A stretch of 27,323 nt of DNA from a virus (lineage: Duplodnaviria; Heunggongvirae; Uroviricota; Caudoviricetes): IMG/VR virus record IMGVR_UViG_2537561979_000007, positions 1 to 27,323 of that record. The stretch is one strand, 5' to 3'. Shown piece by piece: positions 1,369 through 7,797 of this stretch; position 1 is the first letter of the stretch, and every line of letters begins with the position of its first letter. The translations under genes and the position numbers were made by a program. The notes under the pieces were generated by a model, which worked only from the letters and a program-made list of their open reading frames with translations, was not told the DNA's origin and made no database searches.

Positions 1369-1444
1369 GCCGATATAGCTCAGTTGGTAGAGCAGCGCAT
1401 TCGTAATGCGAAGGTCGTAGGTTCGACTCCTATTATCGGCACCA
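1369..1444 (+). tRNA. thrW: tRNA-Thr (anticodon CGU), 76 nt ending in CCA
   Basis: GCCGATATAGCTCAGTTGGTAGAGCAGCGCATTCGTAATGCG...GGTTCGACTCCTATTATCGGCACCA read directly; cloverleaf with CGT in the anticodon loop and a GGTTCGA T-arm. Confidence 0.95.
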
Positions 1445-3154: not shown

Positions 3155-3516
3155 TATGCTCCAGCCTCCGGTGCTTTTGGCATTACTGCCCAGTGAGTGA
3201 TATTGACGTTTTCAAGGTCCCCGACCTGAAATGTCCACTGCCATTCTCCGGTTTCTTTTTGTCCCCAGGTGTACCAGAGAGAACGCCAGCCAATCAGCCA
3301 GCCTTCTCCATTAGCATCAAATAACAGAACACTTTCATTTGCTGGTGGCAGTTCAGCTGACACTGGTATTATTTTGTTTTCCAGTGCCGCACATTTAGCT
3401 TCAAGCGCGTCGAATTTACGTACCAGGTATTCAGCATCTGTTTCATTCACTTTCAGATCTCGCGGTACACATTTCCCGCGAAGAAACCCTTCCATTTCGA
3501 AAACATTCATGCGCAT
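3154..3516 (-). CDS. Early-left hypothetical protein, YfdS-like (120 aa)
   Basis: ORF overlapping its neighbours; size and order consistent with YfdS. Confidence 0.65.
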   Translation of the reverse strand: MRMNVFEMEGFLRGKCVPRDLKVNETDAEYLVRKFDALEAKCAALENKIIPVSAELPPANESVLLFDANGEGWLIGWRSLWYTWGQKETGEWQWTFQVGDLENVNITHWAVMPKAPEAGA

Positions 3517-4043
3517 TTGCGTAACTCCGATAACTCGTTGAAGCGTTCCATAAACATCCCGTAGGCATGGCCCGGTGCAAGTGGAATCACGTTGAACATC
3601 TCTGTTGCCGGGATACCTTCCAGTACAGGCCAGAAAGAGCCATCATCAAGCCCGAGATCGCGGCGTTCGGTTGCCAGCATGATGAGATCGGCATATTTCA
3701 CGGGCGTGCTCATAGCCTGAGGTAACCCGTATTTCTCACGGATTACGGCGTCTATTTTTTCTTCCATCCGTTTATAGTCAGGAAGGAGGCGTTTCAGTGG
3801 TGCGGGGATGTCCTGGCAATACGCTTCTGTTGCATCATGCATTAATGCTTCAAAAGCAAATTCCTGCGGTACCAGCATGCTGCAAAGCACCGCATGTTGG
3901 GCTACGCTATAGAAGTGTGAAAGGTGACCTGCAAAGCGGCAGATATTTGAAAGGGAAACCGCGATATCGTTAATAACGATGTCGTCTTTATTTATCTTGT
4001 CATAATAAAAATGCTTCCCGGAAAAAGTTTTAATAAATGACAT
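3507..4043 (-). CDS. yfdR: HD-domain phosphohydrolase (YfdR-like 5'-deoxynucleotidase family), 178 aa
   Basis: H...HD metal-binding motif (RFAGHLSH...LMHDATE); start chosen at MSFIKTF (ATG 4041-4043) with GGAG 7 nt upstream; the track ORF begins 9 codons earlier. Confidence 0.78.
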   Translation of the reverse strand: MSFIKTFSGKHFYYDKINKDDIVINDIAVSLSNICRFAGHLSHFYSVAQHAVLCSMLVPQEFAFEALMHDATEAYCQDIPAPLKRLLPDYKRMEEKIDAVIREKYGLPQAMSTPVKYADLIMLATERRDLGLDDGSFWPVLEGIPATEMFNVIPLAPGHAYGMFMERFNELSELRKCA

Positions 4044-4170
4044 TTTGTTCTCCACGTATATGCACTGCACCGCGCTGAATTCTGGTAAAAGGAAGCCCTC
4101 ACCATCCGGTGATTATTGAGTTAATTACGCTTCCATAAATGCCCCCGCAGGGGCATTTGCAGTAATGAAA

Positions 4171-4995
4171 TCAGGCGGTGAAAGTACCAATAAAGGTTTC
4201 TACTTTGCTGTTTTTGAATTTCTCAACAAGCAGATCACGAAATTCGTTAGCCATTTCTTCCTGCACCGCTTCCAGCTGAATAATGCGCAGAACCAGTACA
4301 GGACGATCGCCAGTGATAATGCTGAGGCGTAATTTAAACGGACGTTCTTTCAGACCTTCAAACGGAACGCATTTAAATTCAAATGCCACTGGCATAATGT
4401 CTTTGGTCTTCGCTTCGACAGACTCCATCAGGGAGCGTTTGCCGCTGAAGTCATTATCTTCAAAATCAGCGGTCTGGTTCGCTTCAATTGTGATTTTACG
4501 GATCGCCGCAGCCGCTTTGGTTGCCTGAATGGCGTCACCATTAGCATCAAAGCCCACAAGGTAGTCGGCCCAGTCTTCAATCCATTCTGCCAGTGACTTC
4601 TGGGAGTTACGCTCGCCGTTAACAGACAACAGGGTAGAGAACGGTGCTGTCTTTTTCAGTTTGAGAGTGGCGGTGTTATCTGCGTGACCTGGTTCATCAA
4701 TAGTCCCCAGGTTAAGCACACTGACGGCTTGCATATTATCGGCATCGATAAAGCAGCGGGTGCCTTCATCTGCAAGATCTTTAGAATAACGGGTAAAGTC
4801 ATCGATGCTGGCAGTGGAAAGCGCGCCACGGAAACGGAAGCGATTTAAATTAAATTTTTCCAGATCATGAATGCGGAAATTTTCAGGTAATGCCACTGCG
4901 TCGGCACCAATCTTACTGATAATTTCATTAACACCCTGAGCAGAAATAAGGGCATGGATTTGATTAATTGCGGTTGCGTCTAAGTTCTGAGACAT
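4171..4995 (-). CDS. yfdQ: YfdQ-like (DUF2303-type) phage protein, 274 aa
   Basis: Full ORF; sequence and length recognised as YfdQ-like; sits between the YfdP-like and YfdR-like genes. Confidence 0.75.
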
Positions 4996-5060
4996 AATAA
5001 GTCCTCACTATACAAAGATATTCAGTGATGAGATAAATAATCAGTTTATTAAGAACGATA

Positions 5061-5423
5061 TTAACGACCTGCTGCGCGGAGTTTTCCGTCAGGTTCACCG
5101 GCAAGAGTCAGTAATTGTCCCTGGTCTTCCTGCAGAATAGTCAGGCGACCACCGCGATTGACATACATCGGCGTTTCGGTAGTGTCTTCTTCGGAAATTT
5201 TCCCGCGGTTAGTTGGGCGAACATATGAGAGTTTGTGTTTGATTTTCACACGGTTCTCATCAAATGGTTCAATTTCCAGGTTGAGCGAGACCTTACCTTT
5301 GGTTTTCGTGTTCATCACACCGGAAGCGACTTCACTGAGAACTGCGCCGATTTTGGTTTCAAATACGCCGCCGTCCAGCTCCCCGATAAATGCCTGTACA
5401 TCAGTACTGCGTTCGCTAGCCAT
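5061..5423 (-). CDS. Early-left hypothetical protein, YfdP-like (120 aa)
   Basis: Start taken at MASERSTD (ATG 5421-5423) with GAGGAG 6 nt upstream; the longer track ORF (to 5744) has a junk-like Pro/Arg-rich N-terminal extension. Confidence 0.65.
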   Translation of the reverse strand: MASERSTDVQAFIGELDGGVFETKIGAVLSEVASGVMNTKTKGKVSLNLEIEPFDENRVKIKHKLSYVRPTNRGKISEEDTTETPMYVNRGGRLTILQEDQGQLLTLAGEPDGKLRAAGR

Positions 5424-5895
5424 TTTGCTGCTCCTCATCATATCGACCCTGCAAGGTCGGTTGGTTTCTCCACAAAACAGAGAAGAACACCTGCGGTGGC
5501 AGCCGCCCGGATGGATTGGGTTATGAGCCCGTCGTCCGGTGATGCTCTTCTCTGTTTTGTAAAAAGAACGGTACCAGCCGGAAGCAAGGGTACAAGCTGG
5601 TGGTACCGCCAGGACTACACACAGCATAAAGTTGTGGTGCCGGGTGCCTCCCTGTGCCTGGCGAAGGTTGCACACCAGGCGGGTGGGTATCCACAGAAGG
5701 TCGACTGTCAGCCTCAACCTTAACCCGCGTGCGCTGAGCCGCATTCACCACAACGCTAAGGATTCTCTCTGGTTGAAAATGCTTAGCTGTTATGTGCCTG
5801 CTTTTAGCCACATCAGGCGAGGTGGACCTAGTTATTCCCCAACAACAAGGATTTGGTTAATCTGGATATCCCCAACAACTAGCTGAGTATTCAAC

Positions 5896-6417
5896 GTGAT
5901 AGCTGAACTGTCTGCGGCTATGGCCGCTATAAAGGAGACTGCCGGTCTTGCTAAGGTTATTAATGACGCGAAAACGGATGCAGAAGTTAAAGCTGCAACC
6001 ATTGAACTCCAGAACAAACTAATCACGCTTCAGGCAGAATGCTTCTCTCTTGGCGATGCGATCCGCCTTCGTGATGAAGAGGTGATGCATCTCAAAGCAA
6101 AAATTGCAGAGTTTGAAGATTTTTGTGCCAAGGTAGAAGGATATGTCCTTGATCAGCTTGACTCTGGTGCTTTTGTTTACTCTAAAAATGAAATTGTGAG
6201 TGGAAAAGAAATAACTGTGCATCTGTGCCCACTTTGTTATTCCAAAAATATAAAATCGATACTTCATCCGCTTCCAGTAGGTAAAACTTCTCATTTTCTT
6301 ACAAGCCGTTGCCTTCACTGTGAAAATAAATTTCTTATGGAAAAAAATCCGATGTACGAACGACCAAGATCATTACGTGAGTTGGGGCGAGATCTGAATT
6401 CGCCTTGGATTCCTTAA
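5896..6417 (+). CDS. Hypothetical coiled-coil protein with C-terminal Cys4 zinc-ribbon-like motif (CPLC...CLHC), 173 aa
   Basis: ORF on the opposite strand to the surrounding early-left genes; own intrinsic terminator 40 nt downstream; start is GTG at 5896 or ATG at 5917, neither with a clear SD. Confidence 0.55.
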   Translation: MIAELSAAMAAIKETAGLAKVINDAKTDAEVKAATIELQNKLITLQAECFSLGDAIRLRDEEVMHLKAKIAEFEDFCAKVEGYVLDQLDSGAFVYSKNEIVSGKEITVHLCPLCYSKNIKSILHPLPVGKTSHFLTSRCLHCENKFLMEKNPMYERPRSLRELGRDLNSPWIP

Positions 6418-6445
6418 ATCTTGCATTGGTTGGATGATACCCAGA

Positions 6446-6457
6446 TTGTTAAAGAGC
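6446..6457 (-). promoter_or_regulatory. boxA-like element (GCTCTTTAACAA) on the leftward transcript; candidate nutL
   Basis: Reverse complement of 6446-6457 is an exact match to the rrn/lambdoid boxA core as I recall it (GCTCTTTAACAA), about 190 nt downstream of the OL operators and next to a hairpin. Confidence 0.4.
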
Positions 6458-6459
6458 TA

Positions 6460-6483
6460 AGCGTCCTGTAGGGCGCTTTTTTG
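6460..6483 (+). terminator. Intrinsic terminator after the 5896..6417 gene
   Basis: Hairpin AGCGTCCTGTAGGGCGCT followed by TTTTTT. Confidence 0.5.
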
Positions 6484-6655
6484 TTGCTAACGAATCATCC
6501 TGGACTTCATATGCCCCAGGCGGCTACTTCGTGGGCGTCCTGCCTGTTCGTTTTTGACATTTACTGACCGCTTACGACACATGCACCGTGCACCGTGTTG
6601 CAACCAGATTTTGTTGTAATCCTGTAGTTGGTCTGGAACAAAAGATAAAATTAAA

Positions 6656-6692
6656 TTGCGAGATATGCAAGTGGTGTTTGCGAGATATGCAA
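6656..6692. promoter_or_regulatory. Putative OL operators: two copies of TTGCGAGATATGCAA (6656-6670, 6678-6692)
   Basis: Two identical 15-bp sites with inverted TTGC/GCAA ends, 22 bp centre to centre, same architecture as the sites between cI and cro; TTGCAT -35-like hexamer on the minus strand overlaps them. Confidence 0.5.
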
Positions 6693-6746
6693 AATGATGG
6701 GTAATAAAAAGCCACCTTTCAGTGGCCGATGGATGGGATATTGAGG

Positions 6747-7439
6747 TTAATTATGTCTCTTAAGGGTTTGCGACTGACTGATTAAGACCTTTCCAAAGAC
6801 CATGAATCGGTGTTCGTTTTCGCTAGTAATTCCCCATTCACGGTAAATCTGGTTATCAGAAATCACCAGCAGTTTGTCAGGAATCATTTGAAGTCTTTTA
6901 ACGTATATTTTGTCATCAAAACCAAAGACATATATACCATCACCATCAAACTGATTGATGCTGACATCAACGAAGATGAGATCTCCTGGCTCAATGGTTG
7001 GACACATACTGTCCCCACGAACGTTGATAACTTTGATGTGATTGGCCGGTCGTCCGCCGAACATTGATACAGCATTATCAGTTCTGTATTCGATGGCATG
7101 AATCACATCAATGACATCACCGCCCTGGATAAGGCCATTTCCCGCACTGGCACTGATATCCAGCATTTCAATACGGAACACATCCTTCACCTGCGCAACA
7201 TCCTCATTATTACTGTTTTTATATACAGTATTACTTTTGAGGGCAGAGGTAAAGAGATCAGCAATATCAACACCTAAGCTCTTGGCAATATTACTCAGTG
7301 TTTGTTCGGTAAATTGTTTTTGCTTACCCGTTTCTAAGCGCGAGATGTTCGCCGCATCTACTCCTATTGCTTCAGCGAGATCGGCGATTTTCATGTTCTT
7401 CGCTTGGCGAAGTTGTCTGACTCGGTTTCCTATGTTCAT
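6747..7439 (-). CDS. CI-like repressor: N-terminal HTH plus C-terminal S24 (LexA-like) peptidase domain, 230 aa
   Basis: HTH (MKIADLAEAIGVDAANISRLETG); S24 motifs GDSMCPTI (Ser) and KRLQ (Lys); divergent from a cro-like gene with operators between. Confidence 0.88.
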   Translation of the reverse strand: MNIGNRVRQLRQAKNMKIADLAEAIGVDAANISRLETGKQKQFTEQTLSNIAKSLGVDIADLFTSALKSNTVYKNSNNEDVAQVKDVFRIEMLDISASAGNGLIQGGDVIDVIHAIEYRTDNAVSMFGGRPANHIKVINVRGDSMCPTIEPGDLIFVDVSINQFDGDGIYVFGFDDKIYVKRLQMIPDKLLVISDNQIYREWGITSENEHRFMVFGKVLISQSQTLKRHN

Positions 7440-7459
7440 GCGTTTATTACATTTCTTTA

Positions 7460-7522
7460 TTGCGTGATAAGCAAATCAACTTGCGCAAAATAATTGCGTG
7501 AAATAACATGCATAACGCGCAA
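7460..7522. promoter_or_regulatory. Putative OR operator cluster (TTGCGTGATAAGCAA, TTGCGCAA, TTGCGTG...CGCGCAA) with PR/PRM
   Basis: Repeated TTGCG/CGCAA half-sites in the 97-bp cI-cro intergenic region; same half-site as the OL copies. Confidence 0.5.
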
Positions 7523-7536
7523 TATTTGGAGGGTAT

Positions 7537-7797
7537 ATGCAATCACCATTACGAAATGTGCGTAAGGCGCATGGTTTCACTTTGCAGCATGTTGCTGCGG
7601 GTGTTCAAGTCAATCCAGCGACATTGAGTCGTATTGAGAGGCTGGAGCAGATTCCATCTATCGAGCTTGCAGAACGTTTAGCCAATTTTTTTAAGGGTGA
7701 AGTCAGCGAAATGCAGATTCTTTATCCGGCACGTTTTCAATCTAGCCAAAACCAGAATGGGTTTAAACCACAGGAACAGGAGGTGAACCGTGGGTAA
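7537..7797 (+). CDS. Cro-like HTH regulator (86 aa)
   Basis: GGAGGG SD then ATG; HTH-like segment FTLQHVAAGVQVNPATLSRIE; divergent from cI. Confidence 0.72.
   Translation: MQSPLRNVRKAHGFTLQHVAAGVQVNPATLSRIERLEQIPSIELAERLANFFKGEVSEMQILYPARFQSSQNQNGFKPQEQEVNRG

Follow-up and report, generated by a model that had tools for sequence, protein, structure and literature searches.

Prophages of enterobacteria carry several described small RNAs (sRNAs) with which the locus studied here can be compared. STnc100 (Rfam RF02076), which is the same RNA as EcOnc27, and PasD are borne by Shiga toxin (Stx) and other lambdoid prophages and are abundant, Hfq-bound sRNAs of ~170-210 nt (PMC12711010, PMC5331693, PMC8550237). 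PasD2, a relative, forms the most abundant CsrA-bound RNA pair in enteropathogenic Escherichia coli (EPEC; bioRxiv 10.64898/2026.08.12.744399). KilS (b4833), annotated in the kilR leader of the Rac prophage of E. coli K-12, is Northern-validated and Hfq-associated, has its own promoter according to transcription start site data and carries an RNase E site 5′ of a stretch that it shares with our locus (PMC8175672). Here we analyse a prophage sequence of 27,323 nt (IMG/VR record IMGVR_UViG_2537561979_000007; hereafter the window), which is of the lambdoid SfV/e14/CPS-53 type and has an adjoining tRNA gene. The subject is the region at 5424-5895 upstream of yfdP, which an initial annotation made from the sequence had rightly described as an untranslated stretch within the leftward early transcription unit. 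It is most likely the non-coding, minus-strand leader of the leftward early operon yfdP-yfdQ-yfdR…xis-int and holds an STnc100-like core, a linker and putative terminator resembling KilS, and a long hairpin (Table 1). We regard it as a real, functional element, largely of known prophage sRNA type, and consider it rather probable that it works as an Hfq-type sRNA combined with a termination barrier ahead of yfdP…int. The e14 copy of the element, 'ymfH', appears in the K-12 RIL-seq tables (sequencing of ligated, interacting RNAs) as an sRNA candidate that scores like dicF (PMC8175672).

The core is the part on which this reading chiefly depends. A permissive Rfam covariance search gives one significant match, to RF02076 on the minus strand at 5559-5782 (35.4 bits, E 5.3e-6), which aligns to the model over its full length (positions 1-206) and lies below the curated gathering cut-off of 47 bits. 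Sub-threshold matches of 29-41 bits to the same model are found at the same position in SfV, ST64B, phiES15, sal3, mEp460_4F5 and e14. We built a covariance model from eight early-left cores (R1) and searched loci fetched by a motif pattern; as the pattern scan of genome contigs is loose and gives many chance matches in GC-rich genomes, only enterobacterial matches confirmed by the covariance model were kept. The search returned 59 hits comprising 57 distinct sequences. R1 scores the window core at 145.5 bits, and it scores canonical STnc100 of 933W and of three other phages at 30-41 bits (E 5e-8 to 5e-5). Hence, detection works in both directions, since RF02076 finds the window and R1 finds canonical STnc100.

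The structure of the core is supported by covariation. Over the 57 distinct sequences, 90.2% of the pair cells are compatible with pairing compared with 34-46% when the partners are slid, and 30 of the 37 core pairs show compensatory changes on both sides. Slid controls reach a covariation score of at most 0.08, compared with 0.419 for the actual pairs, and none of 500 shuffles is as good. The core is thus a genuine structured RNA with its structure under selection. The many G-U pairs that it contains fix its strand as minus, and folding of both strands of the whole region, which the initial annotation had proposed as a check, likewise points to the minus strand as the functional one (z = −4.99 compared with −2.12 for the plus strand). 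The consensus comprises a near-invariant UGCG-GCUNAG-CGCA hairpin, variable arms and a CC(G/U)GG-AGGCA-CC(C/A)GG hairpin, and the window correspondingly has UGCG-GCUCAG-CGCA, two variable arms and CAGGG-AGGCA-CCCGG. The junction and loop sequences GGUGAAUGCGGCU.AGCGCA and GGAGGCACC are nearly invariant while the core helices covary. A structured RNA had been suspected in this region before; a conserved RNA with an sRNA-type module is indeed present, but its main element is neither of the two dyads then singled out, being instead the 130-nt core at 5628-5758 that had gone unnoticed.

The window and STnc100 share the closing helix, the GGUGAAU junction, several arms, a CCGGGAGGCACCCGG hairpin by the 3′ strand of the closing helix, the linker and the terminator, and covariation supports this common architecture. 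In contrast, the interior arms are unrelated in sequence, and the described seeds of PasD differ from the window seed. Canonical STnc100 copies are late-operon elements found behind Q, stx (stx2B) or tRNA genes, whereas the window copy is part of the early-left leader, is located between the repressor region and yfdP and does not have the free-standing late-region position. One phage (L015; loci of the comparison set carry L numbers) has three tandem STnc100 copies behind a tRNA-Met gene. In another (L240, IMG/VR UViG_2645727555_000005), one strand (3472-5045, minus) carries four tRNA genes with three STnc100-like cores placed in between. T-arm-like hairpins (CTGGTTCGATTCCAG, GTCCGTTCAATTCGGAC) precede the core in L008 (~2400-2497) and are also found just upstream in L110, L117, L011 and L009; they are absent in the window. 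The mEp460, Stx2a_WGPS2 and Stx2c phages (L006, at 2351-2492, L011 and L012) have a different interior (R1 26 bits) framed by the same closing helix, GGUGAAUGCG and terminator, and this part overlaps an annotated opposite-strand open reading frame (ORF), gp37, which is possibly spurious there.

The element is widespread. Of 5426 complete E. coli genomes, 2859 contain sequence that matches 5400-5920, with at least 80% of it covered in 1320, and similar DNA is found in phages SfV, SfII, SfIV, ST64B, mEp460_4F5 and Cronobacter phiES15. In K-12 CPS-53, the element is missing except for its last 63 nt. In every locus examined, it lies between the inferred leftward operator/promoter (OL/PL) and the first early-left gene. 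K-12 MG1655 itself has unannotated STnc100-like cores in the dicF-dicB intergenic region of Qin (L017, 2951-3085) and in the kilS-kilR intergenic region of Rac (L260, 3760-3895), which end 24 nt (dicB) and 29 nt (kilR) ahead of the start codon of the following gene. Further cores precede yfdP in Buttiauxella and a Rha/Ash protein gene. With cores before kilR (Rac) and dicB (Qin) and beside xisE-intE (e14), a role in the control of division inhibitors and excision can be tested in a laboratory strain.

DicF, the Qin sRNA (RF00039) reportedly made by termination plus RNase processing, is comparable to the window in that it belongs to an early-left (dicB) operon and lies beside an STnc100-like core. 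Its hairpin begins UUGGCGGUAUCAGUUUU, similar to UGGCGGUACCAG in the window hairpin, while its seed is different and the order of the modules is reversed. Membership of the window element in the DicF family was considered and rejected, as scans of 5300-6000 and of 5440-5640 with RF00039 give no match even when E is allowed to reach 10; the e14 copy reaches 28.5 bits with a cut-off of 48. More generally, the KilS/DicF-type module of dicB/kilR-type loci is often upstream of the core, not downstream. Because the order and content of the modules vary between loci, the region is a mosaic of portable RNA modules. This links four RNAs that have been treated separately, namely STnc100/EcOnc27/PasD, KilS, DicF and the 'ymfH' RIL-seq candidate, and which appear as shuffled combinations of core, seed plus terminator, and long hairpin at the heads of prophage early-left operons. 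The literature searched describes neither the early-left STnc100 branch, nor its 'ymfH' identity, the modular link between STnc100, KilS and DicF, or the initiator-tRNA mimic presented below.

The 3′ side of the core is followed, in this order, by UUUAUGCUGUGUGUAGUCCUGG, the GGTACC dyad and UUCUUUUU. The dyad is an 8-nt perfect one (CGGTACCA at 5569-5576, TGGTACCG at 5601-5608), located as initially annotated, and is predicted to be the intrinsic terminator of the core RNA, which would define the 3′ end of the sRNA and act as a barrier before yfdP. Dyad and U-run correspond to the terminator part of the STnc100 model, and the terminator stems of homologues differ, each with a U-run behind it. 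Between core and terminator lies a single-stranded linker. A 21-nt stretch, UGCUGUGUGUAGUCCUGGCGG, is identical in the window and in K-12 KilS and is followed by a similar hairpin in both, and phiES15, phiNP and Rac-type loci retain (A)UUGCUGUGUGUAG despite differing adjacent hairpins. As the linker is kept while the neighbouring hairpins differ, it behaves as an sRNA seed. The pairing of the KilS seed region with the 3′ end of yncL, its RIL-seq partner, beats that of 99% of shuffled seeds. The RNase E site of KilS (1418471) is just 5′ of the seed and, by analogy, such a site would be expected just 5′ of the seed in the window.

Judged by this sequence identity, the seed and terminator of the window appear homologous to KilS. 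The window also shows the KilS type of arrangement, a conserved seed beside a U-run terminator in the leader of the first early-left gene, and both loci have the box described below upstream and an STnc100-like core adjacent. KilS is however only 98 nt long with just a short 5′ hairpin, and the Rac core is located downstream of it, in the kilS-kilR interval; the window has its full core upstream of the seed in the same RNA, and yfdP, not kilR, as the downstream gene. Outside the seed, similarity between the two is too low for BLAST. PasB was also tried as the identity of the seed module and discarded, as neither its probe sequence nor its 83-nt size fits.

A further structure, which we call hairpin-2, separates the terminator from the yfdP ribosome-binding site and is hence part of read-through transcripts. 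It contains the 15-nt perfect inverted repeat of the initial annotation (5472-5486 / 5546-5560), which can be extended to 25-nt arms with 84% complementarity (5472-5496 / 5536-5560). Its predicted free energy is −47.8 kcal/mol (z = −7.3), and none of 200 shuffles is as stable. The outer stem has a different sequence and is yet kept in L150 and L240, and it is kept with compensatory changes in ST64B and phiNP, the kind of stem conservation for which the initial annotation had proposed to look; these outer stems were compared by hand, as MAFFT and RNAalifold did not align them. An Rfam search of hairpin-2 yields no family. The N-leader RNase III site and the sib retroregulator of phage lambda are RNA duplexes in PL-side transcripts. 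Hairpin-2 resembles them as a long, near-perfect duplex in the PL transcript ahead of the first gene, and the hairpin-2-type duplex of e14, located just ahead of xis-int, can be likened to the same sites. In contrast to the lambda sites, to which it has no sequence relation, hairpin-2 has a branched apex with a tRNA-like loop. On the basis of its predicted fold, hairpin-2 is a candidate RNase III or stability element. Of the processing site that had been proposed for this region, what can be upheld is therefore a long hairpin that could serve as one.

The apex of hairpin-2 copies the anticodon stem-loop of initiator tRNA. It equals positions 29-42 of K-12 metY (16 of 17 nt with flank), a match length of 14 nt that none of 2000 region shuffles reaches, and its 7-nt loop is unpaired in the predicted fold. 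The apex motif is conserved in ST64B, phiNP, L150 and L240, where the stem sequence is not. ARAGORN detects no tRNA in 5200-6100, and the likeness is limited to the 14-nt copy of the anticodon arm, with no tRNA cloverleaf.

Table 1. Features of the window around the early-left leader, with strand and characteristics.
Feature	Position	Strand	Characteristics
tRNA	1369-1441		sole Rfam match across the whole window at curated thresholds
yfdP	5061-5423	minus	phrog_204; yfdQ and yfdR also on the minus strand
Proximal yfdP leader	5424-5467	minus	GUGGAGAAAC; small hairpin (GACCUUGCAGGGUC); Shine-Dalgarno GAGGAG at 5431-5436; AUG at 5423
Hairpin-2 (15-bp inverted repeat)	5468-5562	minus	predicted stem of ~20 bp including G-U; three-way junction
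Hairpin-2 apex	5518-5531	minus	CGGGCUCAUAACCC; exact 14-nt copy of the initiator-tRNA anticodon stem-loop
Predicted intrinsic terminator	5559-5612	minus	stem CGGUACCACCAGC…GCUGGUACCG (GGTACC dyad), then UUCUUUUU U-run
Single-stranded linker, candidate sRNA seed	5613-5630	minus	UUUAUGCUGUGUGUAGUC
STnc100-like core	5628-5758	minus	9-bp closing helix GUUGUGGUG/CACCACAAC; junction GGUGAAU; multi-helix
Conserved 38-nt box	5788-5825	minus	CCACCUCGCCUGAUGUGGCUAAAAGCAGGCACAUAAC
Two direct repeats	5836-5879	plus	TCCCCAACAAC; upstream region of gene 5896-6417
Gene 5896-6417	5896-6417	plus	173 aa; phrog_1244 (unknown function); two C-terminal CxxC pairs; between yfdP and the CI-like/cro-like genes
Inferred OL/PL	6637-6692	minus	two exact CI-operator copies TTGCGAGATATGCAA at 6656-6670 and 6678-6692
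CI-like repressor gene	6747-7439	minus	
cro-like gene	7537-7797	plus	

Taken together, we propose a composite sRNA made of core, seed and terminator. Transcripts that start at PL after loss of repressor, and/or at a local promoter, would mostly stop at the terminator, and this would release a stable sRNA of ~200-270 nt. By analogy with KilS and DicF, the sRNA would associate with Hfq, might be shortened by RNase E immediately 5′ of the seed, and could pair with host or phage mRNAs via UGCUGUGUGUAG; expression, Hfq binding, targets and processing are here all transferred from the relatives. The same terminator would also hold down the early-left genes that follow it. Read-through transcripts would carry hairpin-2, which may lead to RNase III cleavage or protect the 5′ end of the yfdP message.

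Several observations weigh against this model. The RF02076 score stays under the curated cut-off, and the core, when folded as a single sequence, shows no unusual stability (z −1.28) and has a minimum-energy structure that differs from the consensus structure. A 3-nt insertion at ~5600-5604, in the 5′ arm of the terminator, is absent from 29 close variants and weakens the terminator of the window (−16.9 compared with ~−21 kcal/mol). The homology to KilS comprises ~21 identical nt and a similar hairpin, and BLAST with KilS as query does not retrieve the SfV-type copies. A search for seed targets inside the window found none, and a sigma-70 consensus scan of 5000-7700 reports no promoter, the PL candidate included. 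Furthermore, most other variants have a core that lacks its own terminator and lies 24-60 nt before dicB, kilR, rha/ash or yfdP, and this steady placement ahead of start codons is left unexplained by a trans-acting RNA.

The last point leads to the idea that the core is chiefly a cis-acting leader element for the first early-left gene, affecting its translation, stability or termination, with the sRNA as a by-product. We rate this as unlikely, though a possibility to be taken seriously. In at least 30 distinct variants, no terminator intervenes between the end of the core and the start codon, 24-60 nt further on, of dicB, kil, rha/ash, yfdP or another small ORF, and K-12 has cores directly before dicB and kilR. 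Moreover, nearly invariant junctions and loops amid covarying helices form a binding-site-like pattern, the relative PasD2 is bound by CsrA in EPEC (bioRxiv 10.64898/2026.08.12.744399) and the PL candidate lies ~0.9 kb upstream of the core, so that the leader is long and untranslated. Such an element might act through protein binding (CsrA, Hfq), through sensing of a ligand or tRNA, or by shielding the leader from Rho. The window core is, however, 205 nt away from yfdP with the terminator and a 95-nt hairpin between them, and STnc100 in its canonical form, like PasD, is a free-standing sRNA that has its own terminator. On inspection, neither the terminator nor the Shine-Dalgarno sequence was seen to take part in a conserved alternative pairing, and no Rfam riboswitch or leader family matches. 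A related proposal, which we consider doubtful, is that core and hairpin-2 are widespread, unrecognised tRNA-associated cis elements heading lambdoid early-left operons (kil, dicB, rha/ash, yfdP, xis-int). The core would then be a protein- or polymerase-binding leader module that gates toxic or excision genes, and the hairpin-2 apex mimic would serve as a sensor or decoy, for instance of the peptidyl (P) site of the 30S subunit with initiation factor 3, of methionyl-tRNA synthetase or of an anticodon nuclease such as VapC. The invariant junctions and loops with covarying helices, the fixed place before start codons, the cores among tRNA genes in one phage, the T-arm-like hairpins and the conserved metY apex copy leave room for it. 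Polymerase is also the partner in the put-like element named in the initial annotation, a processive antiterminator whose RNA would bind polymerase and let it pass the terminators ahead of yfdP…int in place of N. The HK022 put sites are paired, each with two stem-loops of ~35 nt (~70 nt RNA). The likeness is that of a nascent structured RNA in the early operon of a lambdoid phage without N function: no N-like gene or ORF is found between the inferred PL and yfdP and SfV/e14-type phages appear to lack N, for which passing the terminators ahead of the early-left genes is a concrete problem; the structured RNA lies 59 nt upstream of an intrinsic terminator; and it stays at the head of the early-left operon whichever gene follows. 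But the 27-kb window has a single copy, with none in the rightward operon, instead of paired left and right sites, and the 130-nt multi-way junction is a different architecture from two stem-loops. R1 also finds nothing in the HK022 immunity region (putL, putR), the Qin and Rac terminators (DicF, KilS) are upstream of the core and beyond its action, and canonical copies occur in late operons that already have Q. We therefore abandon the put-like interpretation as very improbable.

The remaining alternatives deny that the conserved feature is RNA. The region contains open minus-strand frames of 96 and 227 codons, RefSeq lists 'protein YmfH' over the K-12 e14 copy (L007, 3002-3313) and in strain Z247 the Prokaryotic Genome Annotation Pipeline (PGAP)/RefSeq calls the copy (L001, 4039-4349) a 'frameshifted hypothetical protein', so that a YmfH-like gene or an N-terminal extension of YfdP might be assumed. 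We consider this hardly credible, and the initial annotation had likewise called all ORFs here junk-like. Codon-level conservation, which it had named as the finding that would speak against an RNA, was examined and is not seen among 30 close variants: their 114 variable sites are evenly spread over codon positions (26/24/31 and 30/35/37 at positions 1/2/3 of the two long minus-strand ORFs) with no third-position bias, and their indels include lengths of 1, 8 and 20 nt. Nor is the frame preserved, as breaks relative to the window are present in ST64B, e14 and mEp460_4F5; no ORF of the region matches Pfam or NCBIfam, and variation follows base-pairing instead. The ymfH coding sequence and the 'frameshifted hypothetical protein' are thus most likely annotation artefacts over a structured RNA. 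As the region is now annotated as nothing, as a hypothetical or 'frameshifted' protein, or as ymfH in e14, reading it as RNA corrects the annotation. At the level of DNA, repeats and dyads could be regulator sites at a divergent promoter region, an improbable explanation for the element as a whole. The two TCCCCAACAAC copies (5836-5846 and 5869-5879) are indeed 33 bp apart and just upstream of gene 5896, as initially noted, a spacing of three helical turns, and both are unchanged in an O157 prophage whose surroundings are 15% diverged; likewise, the 38-nt box is much more conserved than its flanks. In contrast, the repeats are unlike CI operators and not clearly over-represented, the dyads are explained as RNA helices with G-U pairs and covariation, and the repeats are absent from the RNA-carrying SfV, e14 and ST64B. 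Since they are missing there and accompany a homologue of gene 5896 in the unrelated O157 prophage, which has the box and no core, they belong to the neighbouring cassette. The TCCCCAACAAC repeats would accordingly be a separate module of the adjacent gene and not of the RNA, and the regulator-binding array once proposed is not supported as part of the same element. The sRNA with termination barrier remains our preferred explanation.

The setting of the element is consistent with an early-left leader. The CI-operator motif TTGCG(A/T)GATA(A/T)GCAA has three exact 15-bp copies in the window, which on sequence grounds are probably OL1 and OL2 (Table 1) and one site of the rightward operator (OR, 7460-7474). 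The OL pair sits just left of the cI terminator and overlaps a leftward PL candidate read by eye, with TTGCAT as −35 and TATCTT as −10 element separated by a 17-nt spacer. If this candidate is PL, its transcript crosses gene 5896 in antisense orientation as an untranslated leader, with the element 0.7-1.2 kb from its start. The minus strand also has GCUCUUUAACAA (6446-6457), ~180 nt downstream of the PL candidate and immediately 3′ of a hairpin at 6459-6478; it fits the rrn-type boxA consensus and could shield the long untranslated leader from Rho. A lambda-type nut site, which consists of boxA and a boxB hairpin downstream of PL with an N gene behind them, was considered in this connection; an N-like ORF is not found here. 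The boxA-like motif is present in the near-identical strain Z247 and absent from SfV, ST64B and e14. The proximal yfdP leader also occurs in K-12 CPS-53. For that prophage, pawZ had been considered as an sRNA and was dismissed, as it is a tRNA remnant at the right attachment site (attR).

The box upstream of the core marks the exact start of homology to SfV, mEp460_4F5, e14, phiES15, sal3 and K-12 Rac. It is 97% identical in Cronobacter phiES15 compared with ~75% for the rest, and it may serve as a promoter or recognition site or mark the 5′ end of the transcript. Sigma-70 matches near the box are weak when judged by eye (TTAACC, 18 nt, AATAAC), and the consensus scan gives none. A sigma-54 promoter in the box was rejected because the GG-N10-GC spacing is disrupted by a 1-nt insertion in SfV and e14. 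The TCCCCAACAAC repeats can be extended to 14 nt at 93% identity. An exact 11-mer pair at their spacing is not rare, with ~0.6 expected in 27 kb by a rough estimate, and 12 near-matches to TCCCCAACAAC were found where 6.8 are expected. Gene 5896-6417 itself behaves as a mobile cassette, which brings the TCCCCAACAAC repeats into the Rac-like O157 prophage.

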